From the NCBI RefSeq assembly GCF_002854065.1, contig NZ_CP024147.1: a stretch of 64,000 nt of DNA; one strand, written 5' to 3'. The notes below the pieces were generated by a model. That model did not search any database. It saw only the letters and a list, made by a program, of their open reading frames with translations, and was not told the origin of the DNA. The stretch is from Escherichia coli (GTDB lineage Bacteria; Pseudomonadota; Gammaproteobacteria; Enterobacterales; Enterobacteriaceae). Of this stretch, positions 7,716-35,807 are shown piece by piece. The position numbers were made by a program, and so were the translations under genes. Numbering within the stretch: position 1 is the first letter of the stretch; the number at the start of each line of letters is the position of its first letter.

Positions 7716-7727
7716 CACGCTACCGCC
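7716..7727 (-). promoter_or_regulatory. ops element (GGCGGTAGCGTG) within a JUMPstart sequence; RfaH-dependent antitermination signal for the O-antigen operon
   Basis: Plus strand reads CACGCTACCGCC, so the minus-strand transcript carries the exact 12-nt ops consensus about 95 bp upstream of the rmlB start. Confidence 0.75.
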
Positions 7728-8044
7728 CCTGGCTCTCCAGCTACCAGCGCACTGCACCTTCAATGATAAAAATCATTTATGTCAAGGTAAAAATCCGCAA
7801 CGACTCCCACCTGCAAACCCAAAAAATTTCGGCAACTATTTTCGTCTTAAATGCATTTGAACTCAAGGAAAAATCTTATAAACGATATGCAACGCCTACA
7901 TTTCTAACCTATTGTTATTTTTTACTTTGTTTTATGAAATAAAAAGGCAGTGAAGCTAGTAGTAGGTTACCCTACATACTTATGCCCATCTGCCGTTCTA
8001 AAACGCCGTTCTTAAATTTGCTTTATCGTTTACTGAGAAACGAC

Positions 8045-17397: not shown

Positions 17398-17465
17398 GTT
17401 TTTACCTTTCTTCAGGCAACAGTTCGCCCTGACCGTTATGGCCATCAATTTTGGTGTCGTGATTT

Positions 17466-27951: not shown

Positions 27952-30114
27952 TTATTTCGAATCCGACTGATACTCGTACTCGTAGTACCCGTAATCCTGG
28001 TATCCCGTCGCGCGGCGGAAGATCGAGTTGAGGATAACCCCTTTCACCGCAATGCCATTCTGCTCAAAGCGGCTCAGGCTGGTTTCTACTTCCTTCAGGG
28101 TGTTAACCGCATAGCGCGTGACCATCAAGGTGGTGCCCGCGTGGCGACCAACGATAGCGGCATCGGTAACCGCGAGAATCGGCGGCGTATCGATCAGCAC
28201 CAGGTCATAGTTCGCTGAACCCCACTTCAGCAGCTCGCTAAAGCGCTCGGCCATCAACAGCTCCGACGGATTTGGCGGGATCTGCCCGCGCGGGATCAGG
28301 TCAAAGTTGGCAACCGACGTCCGTTTCGCGCTGCTTTCAAACGCCGCTTTCCCCACCAGCACCTCGGACAGGCCGTTATCATTGGTGGTGCCGAGCAGTT
28401 CGTGGGAATAGCCTTTACGCATATCGCAGTCGATCATCAGTACGCGCTTATGGGTCTGGCTGATCACCGCCGCCAGGTTGGCGCAGACGAAGGTTTTACC
28501 GATAGACGGGCTGACCCCGGTCATCATCAGCACGTTGTTCGGCGCCTGCATCATGGCGAAGTGCAGGCTGGTGCGCAGGCTGCGAATGGCTTCGATCGCC
28601 AGGTCGGTCGGGTTACCCACCGCCAGTAGCTGGCTCTGCTTATAGCGCTTCACACCGTTGACGCTCTTCACGCTATCGCGCGATTTTTGCCACTCGGAGA
28701 GCGGAATGCTGGCATAAACATTGATGCCATGCTCTTCGAGCACCTGTGGGCTTTCGATACCGCGGTTAAACAGCGAGCGCAGCAGCACGCCGACGATCGA
28801 CAACATCAGGCCGAGAATAATGCTGCCCAGCACGATCAACGCTTTCTTCGGCTTCACCACCCCCGGCTGAGTAATTGCCGGGTCGACAATCCGCACATCG
28901 CCGACGGTACTCGCCCGGGTGATTTTCAGCTCCTGCTGTTTATTCAGCAGTTGCATATAAACCTGTTGACCAGACTCCACGTCACGGGTCAGGCGTACAA
29001 TCTCCTGCTGGGTTTTCGGCATCGCCGTCACGCGTTTGCTCAGCTTGGCCTTCTCTTCTTCCAGCGCCCGGCGTTTTTCCAGCAACGTGCGATAGGCCGG
29101 GTGGATGCGGGTATACAGCTTGGAGATTTCCGCTTCGCGGAACGTCAGCTCGTTCAGCTGCGCGTCGATGTTCACCATCGAATCGAGCACCGATTTCGCT
29201 TCCAGCGGCAGGTCTACGGAGTCTTGCTGCTGACGGTAGGTATTCAGTTTGTTTTCCGCCACGTCCAACTGGCTGCGCACCTGTGGCAGCTGCACTTCGA
29301 GGAACTCGAGGCTTTTCGCGGCTTCTTCCGATTTGCGCGCCACGTTCTGCGCCACGTAGTTGTTGGCGATACTGTTGAGGATGTCGCGGATCTGATCTTT
29401 GTCTTCACCCACCATCGTGAGCGTCAGCACACCGGACTCTTTACCATCCTCGGTGACGCTCAGGCTATTTTGCAGGTTATTGATCATCCCCAATGTTGAA
29501 TATTTGGTGACGGTAAAACTCGCGCCATCGTGGGCGGCGATCCCGGTAACCAGCAGCGAAACGCCGCCTTTATTCAGCGTCTCCCCGACCTTCCCTTCTG
29601 CGCTAAAACCGTCGTCGTTGCTCAGGCGATAGCGCGTTGGGTTGATAACCTCCAGCGTAAAGGTGCTGTCGGCCATCGAGGCCGGGCGATTAAAGGCGCT
29701 GACCTTCACCGTCTCATTCTGGCGGCCCATCAGCCGTTCCCAGCCCGCCCCCAGAATCGGAAAGGTGTTTTTGCTCACGGCAATATCCAGCCCCAGATCC
29801 TCAACGGTTTTCCCGAGCACCATACGCGAGGTGATCATCTGGATTTCCGCCTCGGAGGCCGGCGGCTTGCTGGTGAGCGCGTTGCTGATATCCTGCACCA
29901 GCGCGCTGCCCTGATTTTGCTCAATGCGCACCAGTGCGTCGGCGCTGTAAATCGGCGTGGCGAACAGCGCGTAGACAATCGCCAGCGCGGCAAACAGGGC
30001 GGTAATGCCGATGACCCACCATTTGGCTTCCACCACGGTGCCCACAAGGCGACCAATGTCGATCTCATCGTTGCCCGAGACCGATGGGCTTATCTGTTTT
30101 ACTTTATCTGTCAT
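27952..30114 (-). CDS. wzc: Tyrosine-protein kinase Wzc (polysaccharide co-polymerase / BY-kinase)
   Basis: Probable start MTDKVKQISPSV; C-terminal Walker A GVSPSIGKT and tyrosine-rich tail YQDYGYYEYEYQSDSK. Confidence 0.95.
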   Translation of the reverse strand: MTDKVKQISPSVSGNDEIDIGRLVGTVVEAKWWVIGITALFAALAIVYALFATPIYSADALVRIEQNQGSALVQDISNALTSKPPASEAEIQMITSRMVLGKTVEDLGLDIAVSKNTFPILGAGWERLMGRQNETVKVSAFNRPASMADSTFTLEVINPTRYRLSNDDGFSAEGKVGETLNKGGVSLLVTGIAAHDGASFTVTKYSTLGMINNLQNSLSVTEDGKESGVLTLTMVGEDKDQIRDILNSIANNYVAQNVARKSEEAAKSLEFLEVQLPQVRSQLDVAENKLNTYRQQQDSVDLPLEAKSVLDSMVNIDAQLNELTFREAEISKLYTRIHPAYRTLLEKRRALEEEKAKLSKRVTAMPKTQQEIVRLTRDVESGQQVYMQLLNKQQELKITRASTVGDVRIVDPAITQPGVVKPKKALIVLGSIILGLMLSIVGVLLRSLFNRGIESPQVLEEHGINVYASIPLSEWQKSRDSVKSVNGVKRYKQSQLLAVGNPTDLAIEAIRSLRTSLHFAMMQAPNNVLMMTGVSPSIGKTFVCANLAAVISQTHKRVLMIDCDMRKGYSHELLGTTNDNGLSEVLVGKAAFESSAKRTSVANFDLIPRGQIPPNPSELLMAERFSELLKWGSANYDLVLIDTPPILAVTDAAIVGRHAGTTLMVTRYAVNTLKEVETSLSRFEQNGIAVKGVILNSIFRRATGYQDYGYYEYEYQSDSK

Positions 30115-30116
30115 GG

Positions 30117-30560
30117 TTATCCCTGCTGTGCTTTCAGTGCCTGCGCCCACTGGCTGGCAGACCTGTCGAGTAACTGGTACACCGCTTCAAATGCCTCCCG
30201 GCTTTTGCGATACGGATCGGGAATCTCGCGTTCGTTATCCCAATGACCAAACAGCATGACCTTGCCGCGCATCTCCGGCGCCATTTCATGCAGGGTGGCG
30301 ACATGACGTTTTTCCATCGCCAGAATCAGATCGTACTCACGACACATACGGCCAGAGATCTGTCGCGCGCAGTGCCCTTCCAGCGAAATCGCGTGCTCGG
30401 CGGCAACGCTCGCGGCGCGTTCATCCGCCGCTTTACCCACTAATGCTCCCAGCCCCGCCGATTCGACGGTCAATGACGGCAGATGGCTGCGTAGCAGCCG
30501 TTCCGCCGTGGGGGAACGACAGATGTTCCCCACGCAAACCACAAGAATTTTGCTAAACAT
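30117..30560 (-). CDS. wzb: Low-molecular-weight protein-tyrosine phosphatase Wzb
   Basis: 147 aa; N-terminal ILVVCVGNICRSPTAE CX5R P-loop. Confidence 0.95.
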   Translation of the reverse strand: MFSKILVVCVGNICRSPTAERLLRSHLPSLTVESAGLGALVGKAADERAASVAAEHAISLEGHCARQISGRMCREYDLILAMEKRHVATLHEMAPEMRGKVMLFGHWDNEREIPDPYRKSREAFEAVYQLLDRSASQWAQALKAQQG

Positions 30561-30565
30561 GACGG

Positions 30566-31699
30566 TTACCAGGTATGAATGTCTTTCGCCGAATCGGTCA
30601 TGTAGCGAACGCCACTGATGGTCGGCAACAGTTGGTTGATCAGACGGTTCCAGCGAGCAACCGGTGCGGTGGTGACGTAAACCACGTCATACGGCTGGAG
30701 AATAAAGTTGGTTGCCATGACCAGTGAGGTCGCATCAGACATATCCAACTGATAGATGTTGGCCATCTTGCCGTTGTTGCCCGCTTTGGTTGGACGAATC
30801 ACGAAGATACCGCTGGCATTGGAGGTCGTCAGGTCGATGCCTTCCGCCTGGCCGAGCGCTTCGGTCAGCGTCATGCCGCTGAAGTCCATTTTGAGCGTGC
30901 TCTGTTTTTTCACTTCGCCCATCACGAAGACCTTGAGATCATCGTTACGCGGTACGAAGAGGATATCACCCGGATAGAGCAAGCGGTTCTGGCTCAGATC
31001 GCCGTTTTGCATCAACGCCTGCACTGAAATGCGCTGTTCTTTGCCATCGTGAGTCAGTACCACGTTGCGCCAGTCGGCCAGTTCGCTCAGACCACCCGCC
31101 GCGTTGATCGCGTCCAGTACCGTCAGCGGTACGTTGGTGATAGCCTGCTGGCCGGATTTGTTCACCTGCCCGGAGACATACACTTTTTGCGAACGGAAGG
31201 CGGCAACGTTCACGTCAACCTGCGGGTCGGTGATGTAGGCGGCGAGACGCTGGGTAATGGTCTGGCGAATTTCCGCCAGCGTGCGCCCTTTCACCTGCAC
31301 TTTGCCAATATAGGGATAGAAAATGGTGCCGTCCGGCTGGACCCAGTTACCGGTATCGCTGGAGCTACGGTACTGCCCCGCCGGGGTGGTCAACTCCGGG
31401 TGATCCCACACCGTGACGTTCAGCACGTCGCCTGAACCGACGCGATACTGGTAATTGCTTAACTCCTGATCCAGCGACATGTTCGGTTGCGCGACGTTGG
31501 GACGTGGGCGTAATTGTTCAATCAGTCGCGGGGTCAGCGGATAAACATTCACCATCCGGCCAATGTCATAATCAGCATCCTGCTGCTTAATCACATCTTT
31601 TCCATAGGTAGACATATTGCTGCCTGGAAGTATGGTGCAACCACTCATCAAGCTTACCGACACCAATAATGGCATCAATTTTAGTTTGGATTTCATCAT
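30566..31699 (-). CDS. wza: Outer-membrane polysaccharide export lipoprotein Wza
   Basis: 377 aa; lipoprotein signal peptide with lipobox LMSGC; first gene of the wca operon. Confidence 0.95.
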
Positions 31700-31885
31700 T
31701 GATTATTTATCACTTTGGCAGAAAATTATCCTGTGCGAATTATATTAATCCGTACGATTTGATTACCTGTAAACTCACCATGCATTTATTTGCCGATGAA
31801 TATAACTGGCATATATCCTAAAAAAGTTGGGATTCATCCGCAGGCTATTGACAGAATAATTCAGGCTTTACGTCACGCCTTCAGG

Positions 31886-31897
31886 CATGCTACTGCC
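31886..31897 (-). promoter_or_regulatory. ops-like motif (GGCAGTAGCATG, 10 of 12 matches to ops) in the wza leader; possible JUMPstart
   Basis: Plus strand CATGCTACTGCC; sits about 190 bp upstream of the wza start codon. Two mismatches to the consensus, so function is uncertain. Confidence 0.3.
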
Positions 31898-31968
31898 CTT
31901 GGCTTTCAGCTACCAATTCACCTAAAAATCATGTTGTTATAGGAAACCCACCCATTCATAAAAAGAAT

Positions 31969-31982
31969 AGAGAATATTCCTG
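31969..31982. promoter_or_regulatory. Candidate RcsAB box upstream of wza
   Basis: AGAGAATATTCCTG matches the RcsAB consensus TAAGAATATTCCTA at 11 of 14 positions; an alternative 11 of 14 candidate TAAGAATAATATTA lies at 32120-32133. Confidence 0.3.
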
Positions 31983-32342
31983 GATATATAATTGCAGGGA
32001 TAACATCCCCTGCATGACTATTTTATGACGCACATAAATGGCTATTCCATTCAGTACCGAGAGAATTGTTGCAGTTAAGCGAATAGCAGGCAAGGTAACT
32101 GCCGCTTAAAAAATATTTTTAAGAATAATATTAAGATTAATTAATCGAGTATTTTTAGGAATTTCTTTATATTGACAGATTACAGAGTGAGTTTCTCACC
32201 ATCAAATATTTCACGGGAATATTATCCCCTATTTTCACAATATCCTTAGATTTTGTCATGATAAATCACAGGCAGACGTTGCATTTTGCCGCGGCTTTAT
32301 CCATGATCAATTTGTCTTGTAACATAAGGTTTTAACCAACGT

Positions 32343-33923
32343 ATGGAATGGATTGCCGATCCCTCTATTTGGGCGGGACTCGTGACGCTGGTCGTCATTG
32401 AGCTGGTTCTCGGAATTGATAATCTGGTGTTTATCGCCATCTTGGCGGAAAAGCTGCCGCCAACCCAGCGCGACCGCGCGCGCGTCACCGGGCTTATTCT
32501 GGCCATGCTGATGCGCCTTCTGCTGCTGGCCTCTATTTCGTGGCTGGTCACGCTCACCCAGCCTTTATTCAGCATCCGTGATTTCACCTTCAGCGCCCGC
32601 GACCTCATTATGCTGGTCGGCGGCTTCTTCCTGCTCTTTAAAGCCACGGTAGAGCTCAACGAGCGGCTGGAAGGGAAAGACAGCGATAACCCTACCCAGC
32701 GGCGCGGCGCGCGCTTCTGGGGCGTAGTGGCGCAGATTGTGGTGCTGGATGCCGTTTTCTCGCTCGACTCGGTGATTACTGCCGTCGGCATGGTCGACCA
32801 TCTGGCGGTGATGATGGCGGCGGTGATTATTGCCATCAGCCTGATGCTGCTGGCCAGTAAAGCGCTCACCCGCTTTGTGAACAGCCACCCGACCATTGTT
32901 ATCCTGTGTCTGAGCTTCCTGTTGATGATTGGCTTTAGCCTGGTGGCGGAAGGCTTTGGCCTCGTCATACCTAAAGGTTATCTGTACGCGGCTATCGGTT
33001 TCTCAGTGATGATCGAGTTCTTAAACCAGCTGGCCATCTTCAACCGTCGTCGCTTCCTCACCGCTAACCAGTCGCTGCGAAGCCGCACGACGGAGGCGGT
33101 TATGCGCCTGCTGAGCGGCAAGAAAGAGGATGCCGAGCTGGATGTCGGTACCGCCTCGCTGCTGGTGGACCAGGACGATCAGCAAATCTTCGACCCGCAG
33201 GAACGGCGGATGATTGAGCGTGTGCTCAACCTTAACCAGCGCACGGTCAGCAGTATCATGACTTCACGTCACGATATCGAGCACATCGACCTCAGCGCGC
33301 CGGAAAGCGAAATTCGCGCGCTGCTGGAGAAAAACCAGCATACCCGCCTGGTAGTGACCGGCGGCGATGACGAAGAAGATCTGCTCGGCGTGGTGCACGT
33401 CATCGATCTGTTGCAGCAGTCGCTACGCGGTGAGCCGCTGGATCTGCGCGTACTGATCCGCCAGCCGCTGGTCTTCCCGGAGGCGCTGCCGCTGCTGTCA
33501 GCGCTGGAACAATTCCGTAACGCGCGAACCCACTTTGCCTTCGTGGTGGATGAGTTTGGTTCGGTCGAGGGGATTGTGACGTTAAGCGACGTGACCGAGA
33601 CCATTGCCGGTAACCTGCCAAACGAGGCTGAAGGGATTGATGCGCGCCACGACATCCAGAAAAATGCCGACGGCAGCTGGACGGCAAATGGCCACATGCC
33701 GCTGGAAGATCTGGTGCAGTACGTTCCGCTGCCGCTGGATGAAAAGCGCGAGTACCACACCATTGCCGGGCTGCTCATGGAACACCTGCAGCGCATTCCC
33801 ACAGCCGGTGAAGAGGTGCAGATTGGCCCGTGGACGCTGAAAACCTTACAGGTCGAGAGCCACAGGGTACAGAAAGTGCAGATTATCCCGCCGCCGCAGG
33901 AAGAGTGGGATTACGAAGTGTAA
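32343..33923 (+). CDS. yegH: Inner-membrane protein YegH (TerC-family membrane domain plus CBS pair and CorC/HlyC transporter-associated domain)
   Basis: 526 aa; hydrophobic N-terminal half and soluble C-terminal half; divergent from wza. Confidence 0.88.
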
Positions 33924-33929
33924 TATTTT

Positions 33930-33952
33930 CCCGGCGGCGCCATGCCGCCGGG
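33930..33952. terminator. GC-rich hairpin between convergent yegH and asmA; possible bidirectional terminator
   Basis: CCCGGCGGC-gccat-GCCGCCGGG perfect 9 bp stem; flanking runs are only weakly T/A-rich, so terminator activity is uncertain. Confidence 0.35.
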
Positions 33953-33962
33953 CTTAGGGATG

Positions 33963-35807
33963 TTACTGCTTATCGAGGAGCTGCTTCACGTCTTTACCGG
34001 ACTGGGTATTCTTATTGCGTTCCGCCCAGTCATTTAACCGACGCTTCGCCTCGTTCTGTAGCTGACGGCGCAGTATCTGGTCTACCTGCAAACTGTAGTT
34101 CAGGGCTTCCCATTTGCCGTAAACGCGCAGCGGAATAGCCGTAGACTTCAGAATATCCACCAGCTTGCCCTGCCCCTGCCAACCATCAGTAACCTGAATA
34201 CCGAACTGCAGATCGCCTTCCTCTTTCATCAGATCGAGAGTGCCTTTGCCGGTCATCTGCATCAGCGAGGATTTCCCTTTCATGTTACTGAGCGCCAGAA
34301 TGCCGCTATCGAGGTCAACATCGGTCGTCAGTTCATCCAGCCGCGTGGCGCTGTCATAGTTCTCCTGCGCCTGCACGTCTGTACTACGCTCAACCGCCTG
34401 CTGAACCAACTGCTGGAAGTTCAGCCCTTCGGTACGGGTGTCTCTTAGTTCAAGATTCGCCTGCCCCTGCCAGTCGCGGCGGAAGTGGTTGGCATCAATC
34501 ACCGAACCCGAAAAATCACCGGCCAGCGACAGTTTGCCCGTCATGTTGATGGGGTAGTTGAAGGCCTTCAACAGGCTGCCAATCTCGATGTTGTCGAGCT
34601 TAGGCTGAAATTCGGCCTGCGGAGTCCCACTGCGCGCATCCAGCGTGCCCGGCAGTGACAGTTGACCACCGGCTAATGAACCTTCCAGTTGAGAGATATG
34701 CAGCAGCCCACGCTGGTTATCGGCCTGCAGGGTCACATGGGTAAACGGCAGCCCGCGCCAGACGATCTGGTTCGCGGTCATCGCAAGCGAACCATCGAAG
34801 CTTTTCAGGCCGCTATAAGGCGGTAAATTAACGCCGTTGGCTATCACCGGACGCGGTTTGTTCGGCGCCGACTGTGCCTGCTGCGCGCCACCGCCGAGGA
34901 GGATATCCGAGCGCACCAGCAAGTTATCGAGGTTGAGCTTGTCGGACTGAAGGTTCAGCGACCACACCGGCTTATCGCCCAGCACCACGCTGCCTTTACC
35001 GGTCAGCGTACTGTCGTTGGCCATCAGATTGAGCGCGTTAAAGCTGAGCGTCTTCGCGTCCTCCTGCCAGCTAACGTTCACGCTACCGTTACCGTTAATG
35101 CCCTGAGCCGGAAGATCGGCGCCCTGAAGCTGCCAGCTGATTTGCGACAGCTGCGCATCCAGACTCTGCGGGTAGTTGCCCGCCTGAACGGCGGCGGAGA
35201 AACGAAGGGATAAGTCGCGCTGATCGCGGTTCATGCGGCCTGAGAAATCGACGGTGGCCTGATGCCCGGCATCCTGCTGCATCTGCAGATGAATATCGCG
35301 GACCGTCATCTGCTCATCACTTTCATGCTGGAATACCAGCACGCTGTCAATGACCTGCAGCCCGGCAATATCGAATGACCAGCCGCGATCGCCAGACTCC
35401 TGAGGCAGCGAGGTTCCTTTTGGCGCCACCGGCGCTCGCTGGTCGCGAATCGCCTCGGTTTCCGGCGTCAATTGTACCACCGCGCCTTTGAGCATCACCT
35501 GCTCAACCTGCAGCTGATGTGACAGCAGCGGCAGCAGCGCCACGTCGAGACGCATATTGTCTGCCCGCACCAGCGGCGCGCTGGCGCCGGGCGCGGTTAA
35601 GGTCATACGTCCGGACAAAATGCTTAGCCGCGGCCAGACGTGCCAGCGCAGGGAACCGTCCAGCTCCAGCTGATATCCGCTGCGCTCAGCCACCTGCTTG
35701 ATCATATAGCTGCGGAAATCGTTAGGATTGACCAGCAGCACCAACGATGACAGGCCGGCAACCAGTACCACCAGCAGAATCATCAGTGTCGTCAATATTC
35801 TTCTCAT
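33963..35807 (-). CDS. asmA: Outer-membrane assembly protein AsmA
   Basis: 614 aa; N-terminal membrane anchor MRRILTTLMILLVVLVAGLSSLVLL; position next to dcd. Confidence 0.9.
   Translation of the reverse strand: MRRILTTLMILLVVLVAGLSSLVLLVNPNDFRSYMIKQVAERSGYQLELDGSLRWHVWPRLSILSGRMTLTAPGASAPLVRADNMRLDVALLPLLSHQLQVEQVMLKGAVVQLTPETEAIRDQRAPVAPKGTSLPQESGDRGWSFDIAGLQVIDSVLVFQHESDEQMTVRDIHLQMQQDAGHQATVDFSGRMNRDQRDLSLRFSAAVQAGNYPQSLDAQLSQISWQLQGADLPAQGINGNGSVNVSWQEDAKTLSFNALNLMANDSTLTGKGSVVLGDKPVWSLNLQSDKLNLDNLLVRSDILLGGGAQQAQSAPNKPRPVIANGVNLPPYSGLKSFDGSLAMTANQIVWRGLPFTHVTLQADNQRGLLHISQLEGSLAGGQLSLPGTLDARSGTPQAEFQPKLDNIEIGSLLKAFNYPINMTGKLSLAGDFSGSVIDANHFRRDWQGQANLELRDTRTEGLNFQQLVQQAVERSTDVQAQENYDSATRLDELTTDVDLDSGILALSNMKGKSSLMQMTGKGTLDLMKEEGDLQFGIQVTDGWQGQGKLVDILKSTAIPLRVYGKWEALNYSLQVDQILRRQLQNEAKRRLNDWAERNKNTQSGKDVKQLLDKQ

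Follow-up and report, generated by a model that had tools for sequence, protein, structure and literature searches.

Known control regions of the colanic acid type

The colanic acid (wca) operon is controlled by Rcs. Its switch has become the textbook read-out of envelope-stress signaling through Rcs, besides being a cryptic RfaH target. The promoter and the RcsAB box of the wza (cps) region of Escherichia coli K-12 were reportedly mapped by Stout 1996 and by Wehland & Bernhard 2000. Here we describe the gap between wza, the first gene of this operon, and the divergent gene yegH in a 64,000-nucleotide stretch of E. coli DNA (assembly GCF_002854065.1, contig NZ_CP024147.1), the whole of which we call the window. 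In the window, wza occupies 30566-31699 on the minus strand and yegH, coding for a TerC/CBS/CorC-family membrane protein, 32343-33923 on the plus strand. The intervening 643 bp have a G+C content of 35.3%, compared with 52.1% for the whole window. An earlier reading of the letters alone, subsequently referred to as the original prediction, had described an AT-rich gap of about 640 bp as a divergent control region with RcsAB-like and ops-like candidates. This description stands, the ops-type element being on the strand read in the wza sense. By sequence comparison the control region belongs to a known kind, of which it is a new version derived from Kluyvera; its transcription start and all protein binding are predicted.

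The K-12 region has the same genes in the same divergent layout around a gap of 658 bp. Both gaps contain two upstream blocks (blocks 1 and 2), a promoter-like block, a JUMPstart element about 190 nt before wza and leader blocks downstream of it. However, they are only about 75% identical. The K-12 box TAAGAAATATCGCA is missing here, the window adds an RcsAB-like palindrome (candidate 1) and a hairpin at 31993-32014, and the ops element reads GGCAGTAGCATG instead of GGCGGTAGCGTG. With the RfaH/ops elements of rfb, rfa, hly and kps (RF01707; Zuber et al. 2018) the locus shares a 38-nt match in the non-template strand of the leader of a long polysaccharide operon. T11/G12 and the C3:G8 pair of those elements are kept, whereas the core GGCGGTAG has become GGCAGTAG, a change that is absent from the validated RfaH targets listed in the CFT073 data (PMC9765446).

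A third point of comparison is the Klebsiella galF (P1) RcsAB box TAAGATTATTCTCA, an Rcs operator that adjoins yegH in the homologous chromosomal slot. We could confirm it 187 nt before galF in the yegH-galF gap, and 10 of its 14 positions match candidate 1 of the window (CAGGAATATTCTCT). Since this gap contains neither blocks 1-3 nor a JUMPstart, the likeness holds at the level of the motif only and positional homology is not established; for the same reason we rejected the Klebsiella gap as a homology anchor for the RcsAB box of the literature. The closest relative is the wza-yegH region of Kluyvera georgiana ATCC 51603, which has the same blocks, candidate 1 and the hairpin, together with the canonical G at ops position 4.

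A Kluyvera-like segment in the E. coli chromosome

A scan of one genome per species yielded 80 Wza loci, the best of which was that of K. georgiana ATCC 51603. The Wza protein of the window shows 100% amino acid identity to K. georgiana Wza, and the gap region is 97% identical to that of ATCC 51603 (25 differences in 851 bp). Over 11.1 kb around wza the identity is 93.5%, compared with 83-86% for other Kluyvera species, which points to a relative of the K. georgiana type strain as donor and not to the type strain itself. The control region is thus Kluyvera-type DNA within an E. coli chromosome and not of the E. coli type, a point on which the original prediction was incomplete. Only five of the 5426 complete RefSeq genomes of E. 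coli carry a gap with 99.8-99.9% identity, while all other matching E. coli genomes, K-12 included, show about 75%.

A BLAST comparison of the window with K-12 divides it into two parts. Positions 1-42050, with the O-antigen genes, galF, the wca cluster, yegH, asmA, dcd, udk, dgcE, alkA and yegD, display 67-80% identity, and positions 42097-64000 display 96-99%. By these comparisons the first part, up to about 42050, belongs to a K. georgiana-like replacement of about 66 kb in the E. coli chromosome, which can be seen in NZ_CM128593.1 at about 1827000-1893516. Its gene run comprises sbcB, the his operon, ugd, gnd, an O-antigen cluster of the O52 family with wzm/wzt, galF and the wca cluster, followed by yegH, asmA, dcd, udk, dgcE and alkA, and ends at yegD. 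The replacement is 67-86% identical to K-12, the flanks on both sides 96-99%. Its five carriers come from Gambia, Thailand, Switzerland, Spain and China. A literature search for Kluyvera/E. coli recombination involving colanic acid retrieved no paper.

Some further features were seen at the ends of the segment and in the sister strains. The right junction (42050-42212) lies at a Sib RNA (RF00113, 42066-42212), and about 4.6 kb of K-12 sequence (yegI, yegJ, pphC, yegL and sibA) are absent between yegD and sibB in the window. At the left junction, which adjoins sbcB, sister strain 100416 (NZ_CM128593.1, 1893714-1897054) harbors an integrase fragment, an IS1, an acyltransferase gene and a broken S24 peptidase gene, a set that looks like a mobile-element remnant at a recombination boundary. 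In sister strain SY3626 (NZ_CP059283.1, 1675955-1676805) an IS1 truncates wza just within the coding region, so that the colanic acid operon is disrupted there by a different route.

Conserved footprint of the gap and the putative wza promoter

The divergent order of wza and yegH is kept in 76 species loci with both genes, from about 30 genera. We aligned the gap with sequences from 76 other Enterobacteriaceae species (about 30 genera), using 36 sequences for the whole gap and 77 for its upstream half. Conservation is expressed as the mean identity to the base in the window; stretches of 14 nt have a median of 0.60. Read in the wza sense, the conserved order is a yegH-promoter pair, block 1, block 2, a promoter block, JUMPstart and three leader blocks. 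The three motifs named in the original prediction are all where it had placed them; its list had omitted block 1, the promoter-like block and the leader blocks. It had also held that the functional elements cannot be told from sequence. The comparison across species does rank the candidates, while binding and the transcription start do require experiments.

The candidate sigma-70 promoter of the wza operon lies at 32065-32093 on the minus strand. It consists of a -35 hexamer TTGCCT (32088-32093), a 17-bp spacer and an extended -10 element TGcAACAAT (32065-32073). The arrangement CTTGCCTG-N-CTGCAACAAT recurs in 77 of the 78 sequences, and the block as a whole has a mean identity of 0.83. It had been missed by a simple promoter scan (8 of 12 matches at a cut-off of 9), whose three hits equal chance expectation. 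We infer a transcription start near 32058, which would place JUMPstart at about +135 to +172 of a leader of about 360 nt. Block 1 and block 2 would then lie upstream of the promoter and candidate 1 downstream of it.

JUMPstart and a derived base in the ops core

JUMPstart occupies 31886-31923 on the minus strand, that is, in the wza sense. It scores 41.4 bits with the RF01707 model (gathering score 35), with E = 4e-7 for the scanned 4-kb stretch and 6e-6 for the whole window; the match covers all 38 model positions and the stem is intact. A permissive-threshold Rfam scan of 30000-34000 returned nothing besides this element. The ops 12-mer GGCAGTAGCATG forms its 3' end (31886-31897, minus strand). 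It belongs to the untranslated leader of a long polysaccharide operon, where it lies on the non-template strand, 187 nt ahead of the wza ATG. The original prediction had reported this 12-mer, with its two mismatches to GGCGGTAGCGTG, as a weak ops-like candidate. Taken alone it is weak, as the window contains 26 12-mers with two mismatches where 6 are expected. It is not a stray match, however, but part of a JUMPstart that passes the RF01707 threshold.

Both mismatches are real, but they are not equivalent. An ops is recognizable in 72 of 78 wza leaders, in the form GGCGGTAGCGTG (55 cases), GGCGGTAGCATG (11), GGCGGTAGCCTG (4) or GACGGTAGCGTG (1), and GGCAGTAGCATG occurs only in the window. Position 10 is variable: it is an A in 12 of the 72 elements and also in the RfaH-bound hlyC ops GGCGGTAGCATG of CFT073 (PMC9765446), so this mismatch is an ordinary one. 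The other is a single-nucleotide polymorphism (SNP) in the core, at 31894, where A has replaced G at position 4 of the wza-sense strand (the plus strand has a T). K. georgiana has a G here, as do 71 of the 72 wza ops elements and four of the five sister E. coli genomes, strain 100416 among them; only CUWW06 shares the A. The A is therefore derived and recent. The exchange costs 9.6 bits in the Rfam model and lowers the score from the 51.0 bits of K. georgiana to the 41.4 bits of the window; K-12 and Salmonella score 57.3 and 56.3 bits.

What the exchange may do to RfaH loading is suggested by published work on other ops elements. G4 is present in all eight RfaH-bound ops sites of CFT073, and CFT073 lacking hns and stpA gives a chromatin immunoprecipitation signal for RfaH at the wza ops, 190 nt before wza (PMC9765446). 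According to Zuber et al. 2018, G4 sits in the hairpin loop, where R16 makes a base-specific contact to guanine O6, and a G4C exchange abolishes RfaH recruitment and antipausing in vitro; all ops substitutions but G2C reduce the RfaH effect in vivo (PMC5995543). By analogy with G4C and given the invariance of G4, the exchange probably weakens or abolishes RfaH loading in this strain. A neutral exchange, with RfaH loading normally, strikes us as rather unlikely, although it has some points in its favor. The C3:G8 stem pair and the pause bases T11/G12 are unchanged, the 12-mer still ending in CATG, and a purine-to-purine exchange is milder than G4C. Moreover, the downstream operon is intact: all 20 wca genes behind wza give full-length single tblastn matches to K-12 proteins. 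On the other hand, core bases 1-8 are no longer intact, adenine lacks the O6 that R16 contacts, G4 is near-uniform in the wza elements and uniform in the CFT073 sites, G4C prevents recruitment in vitro, and the exchange carries its penalty in the Rfam model.

The window contains a second JUMPstart at 7716-7754 on the minus strand, between galF and the O-antigen genes, which scores 56 bits and has a perfect ops GGCGGTAGCGTG; it thus holds one canonical and one mutated ops. In five genomes, including Pseudescherichia vulneris and relatives, there is no recognizable JUMPstart/ops before wza, with the upstream and promoter blocks being kept. In P. vulneris, the only one of the five that was aligned, the ops was lost by an apparent deletion. 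Another study places an IS1 between JUMPstart and wza (PMC8117528). A conserved small reading frame starting in ops was considered and rejected, being out of frame between the window and K-12 on reading the alignment.

Loss of the distal box and a box in the leader

RcsAB-like sites were searched on both strands as matches with at most three mismatches to the 14-mer TAAGAATATTCCTA (consensus box TaAGaatatTCctA). In most genera, an extra box is found about 35 bp upstream of block 1. It reads TAAGAAATATCGCA in K-12 and E. whittamii, TAGGAAATATCGCA in Citrobacter, TAGGATATATCGCA in Enterobacter and TAGGAAATATCTCA or TAGGAAATATCGTA in Salmonella. With at most one mismatch to the RcsB-box pattern TNRGAN4TCYNA, this distal box is present in 50 of 77 sequences, compared with 7.8% of 60-nt windows after shuffling. 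Among the 14-mers of the K-12 gap, TAAGAAATATCGCA alone combines T1, A3, G4, T10, C11 and A14, and from this we infer that it is the published K-12 RcsAB box. A full-text literature search for K-12 box sequences and the wza promoter start gave nothing useful, and RcsB reviews and structural papers gave the consensus and not the wza site.

In the 77-sequence alignment, no counterpart of TAAGAAATATCGCA was found at the homologous position of the window. The stretch located there, CGTGAAATATTTGA (32202-32215, minus strand), is a degenerate remnant at the place of the box, whose consensus is TAGGAAATATCGCA. It keeps G4, T10 and A14 and has lost T1, A3 and C11, and its three mismatches (two to three in other Kluyvera) correspond to the background level.

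Candidate 1, at 31969-31982, is found instead in the leader. It is one of the two sites for which the original prediction had given 11 of 14 matching positions, and AGAGAATATTCCTG on the plus strand indeed has exactly three mismatches. Its wza-sense sequence, CAGGAATATTCTCT, includes the palindromic RcsB-box core GGAATATTCT, and the site would lie at about +76 to +89 from the putative start, 78.5 nt before G1 of ops. E. coli and Salmonella have no candidate 1, and most Citrobacter and Enterobacter sequences lack it too, the exceptions being Enterobacter sp. R1 and a record labelled 'C. freundii' M-21. A core [GA]GA-N4-TC[TC] in the same 60-nt leader window is found in 29 of 77 sequences, compared with 4.2% in shuffles. 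The genera bearing it are Kluyvera, Trabulsiella, Pseudocitrobacter, Phytobacter, Franconibacter, Siccibacter, Silvania, Atlantibacter and Cedecea, along with one Buttiauxella and a few unplaced Enterobacteriaceae genomes; the flanks cannot be aligned between genera. Candidate 1 is thus probably a real, clade-restricted element of the RcsB-box type. It may act as an auxiliary site, stand in for the lost distal box or serve as operator to a second promoter near JUMPstart. The cross-species footprint also suggests a turnover of Rcs operators from genus to genus, with the core promoter and JUMPstart remaining fixed.

The last of these roles deserves closer consideration. In that case the chief Rcs operator of this Kluyvera-type region would be candidate 1, acting on a second promoter just upstream of JUMPstart instead of being a passive part of the leader. 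The core is commoner in sequences without the distal box (16 of 27) than in those with it (13 of 50; odds ratio 0.24, P = 0.006, uncorrected for phylogeny). The distances between the core and ops form discrete classes (66.5-68.5, 78.5-83.5 and 96.5-98.5 nt), whereas those to the upstream promoter range from 71.5 to 98.5 nt. In addition, the versions of Franconibacter (AATAAGATTATTCTGG) and Siccibacter (AATAAGATAATTCTCT) are almost identical to the RcsAB box of Klebsiella galF taken together with its 5' flank (AATAAGATTATTCTCA), and in the window candidate 1 is followed by the -10-like hexamers TATAAC (31936-31941) and CATGAT (31928-31933). However, on reading the alignment, the genera with the best boxes have no -10-like hexamer at a fixed position before JUMPstart, which leaves the second promoter as a weak rival only. 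Candidate 1 of the window itself lacks T1 and A14, and its two mismatches to the RcsB-box pattern are at background level. The upstream promoter block is far better conserved, and E. coli and Salmonella, which have no candidate 1, are known to regulate colanic acid through Rcs. We consider a main operator in the leader unlikely, and regard the upstream promoter with blocks 1 and 2 as the better explanation.

Blocks 1 and 2 upstream of the promoter

Block 2 (TTAATATTATTCTTAAAAA, 32116-32134) contains candidate 2, the second of the two sites noted earlier. Candidate 2 (TAAGAATAATATTA, 32120-32133) has exactly three mismatches and matches on both strands; the block is an RcsAB-like pseudo-palindrome centered at about -68.5 from the putative start. 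Its nomination as a candidate site is borne out by the alignment, where it is among the most conserved blocks of the region (mean identity 0.92 in 36 aligned sequences, 97th percentile). Most of the 77 sequences depart from the RcsB-box pattern at one position in this block.

Block 1 (TGTCAATATAAAGAAATTCCTAAAAAT, 32151-32177, minus strand), centered at about -104.5, combines an invariant TGTCAA with an RcsB-type half-site, which reads TTCCTA in the window and ATCCTA in most species. Its mean identity is 0.86 in the 36 sequences, and it contains a further three-mismatch RcsAB match (TAAAGAAATTCCTA, 32156-32169, minus strand). Read in the yegH sense, block 1 also holds the only 14-mer of the gap with all five key positions (T1, A3, G4, T10 and C11), TTAGGAATTTCTTT, which matches at 8 of 14 positions and has a T at position 14. 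The tails of block 1 (AATCCTAAAA) and block 2 (AATCTTAAAA) form a same-orientation repeat AATC(C/T)TAAAA, 36 bp apart. Perfect RcsB half-sites, TCCTA in block 1 and TCTTA in block 2, persist in about 30 genera, whereas their flanks have drifted. The two blocks are the most likely docking sites of RcsB, with or without RcsA.

The RcsAB-like matches are also more numerous than expected. There are 12 in the window, where 3.35 are expected, and 4 in the gap (with the palindromic candidate 2 counted twice, once on each strand), where dinucleotide shuffles of the gap itself give 0.22 (P = 0.0005). The enrichment over shuffles of the gap indicates a cluster beyond what AT-richness gives.

For the invariant TGTCAA, two assignments were rejected since no matching partner element was found, namely an IHF site and the -35 element (TTGACA) of a promoter directed toward yegH. 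A 10-mer, TCTGTCAATA, occurs twice in the gap, at 32170-32179 in block 1, upstream of the promoter, and at 31846-31855 in the leader block after ops. Its core, TGTCAATA, is conserved at both places across genera.

Proposed mechanism

We consider it likely that the gap is a Kluyvera-type control region of the colanic acid operon working as follows. RNA polymerase would start near 32058 at a weak, activator-dependent sigma-70 promoter, with blocks 1 and 2 upstream of it docking RcsB, with or without RcsA. As in E. coli, ops on the non-template strand would then pause the polymerase and load RfaH, which would carry transcription through the operon of about 23 kb. With the distal box TAAGAAATATCGCA missing, the leader palindrome candidate 1 may act as an auxiliary or replacement Rcs site. 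The G4-to-A exchange in ops would lower the expression of distal genes by weaker or lost RfaH loading.

Several observations weigh against this proposal. Candidate 1, candidate 2 (on either strand) and block 1 each have only four of the five key positions. In block 1, GA and TC are separated by 3 nt instead of 4, the AAAA tails resemble an UP element, and a protein other than RcsB could bind to both blocks. The putative promoter, start and site positions are derived from conservation, the equation of TAAGAAATATCGCA with the published K-12 box is our own reading, and the effect on RfaH is carried over from G4C, the substitution that was assayed, to G4A.

One could suppose from the low G+C content of the gap, the H-NS coverage of the wza promoter region in CFT073 (PMC9765446), the lack of a candidate with all five key positions and the A-tract-like conserved tails that the RcsAB-like matches are by-products of AT-rich, H-NS-bound DNA and that the blocks serve other proteins (an UP element for the alpha subunit, or nucleoid proteins), but this seems very improbable, as the enrichment persists against shuffles of the gap itself and the half-sites stay perfect across genera between drifting flanks. 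Rcs control of the operon, moreover, is established knowledge.

Other features of the gap and the window

Three conserved leader blocks follow ops on the minus strand. One, GCACAGGATAATTTTCTGCCAAAGTGATAAATAATCA (31700-31736), stands directly before the wza start codon; its mean identity of 0.92 in 36 sequences is in the 97th percentile, and no strong Shine-Dalgarno sequence was found in it. The other two, ATTATTCTGTCAATAGCCTGCGGATGAA and TTTTAGGA..ATGCCAGTTATAT, lie at 31800-31860 with mean identities of 0.78 and 0.86. They include a 32-nt run that is identical to K-12, although the gap overall is only about 75% identical.

Between the putative promoter and JUMPstart, a perfect 8-bp palindromic hairpin, TGCAGGGGATGTTATCCCTGCA (31993-32014), was recorded as a terminator-like hit on either strand. 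It forms in the minimum-free-energy fold of the leader. The hairpin is largely specific to Kluyvera, where it is partly kept, and absent from K-12 (conservation 0.32).

On the yegH side, TTGCAT, a 17-bp spacer and CATGAT at 32279-32307 (plus strand) are the candidate yegH promoter. Its blocks, which read AAAATGCAA and TGATCATGGATAAAG in the wza sense, have a mean identity of 0.79 and are also found in the Klebsiella yegH-galF gap.

The wca genes occupy about 9076-31699 of the window, with galF just beyond, all of them downstream of JUMPstart. Inside the operon, an algC RNA motif (Rfam RF02929, 55.8 bits) was found at 17402-17451 on the minus strand, between cpsB and cpsG. The E. coli-type part of the window contains the small RNA CyaR (RF00112, 56311-56396), and an IS5 copy with 96% identity to K-12 IS5 lies at 62298-63502 near the gat genes.

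Implications for colanic acid control

Compared with K-12, the region departs from the paradigm in three ways at the sequence level: the distal box is lost, a box-like element is present in the leader, and the ops core carries a SNP. The known picture of the system is unchanged by these findings. The cross-species footprint provides a ranked map of the region that comprises a promoter block, the two invariant blocks upstream of it and a leader box confined to certain clades. The ops A allele and the sister genomes with the G allele form a natural pair for the contribution of RfaH to colanic acid expression. A fuller scenario, which we put forward only tentatively and consider doubtful as a whole, is that an E. 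coli lineage imported about 66 kb of Kluyvera DNA with his, O-antigen and colanic acid genes, that the leader Rcs box replaces the distal box, and that a SNP in a sub-clone disabled the RfaH site. If true, a capsule-type operon would have been uncoupled from RfaH naturally.

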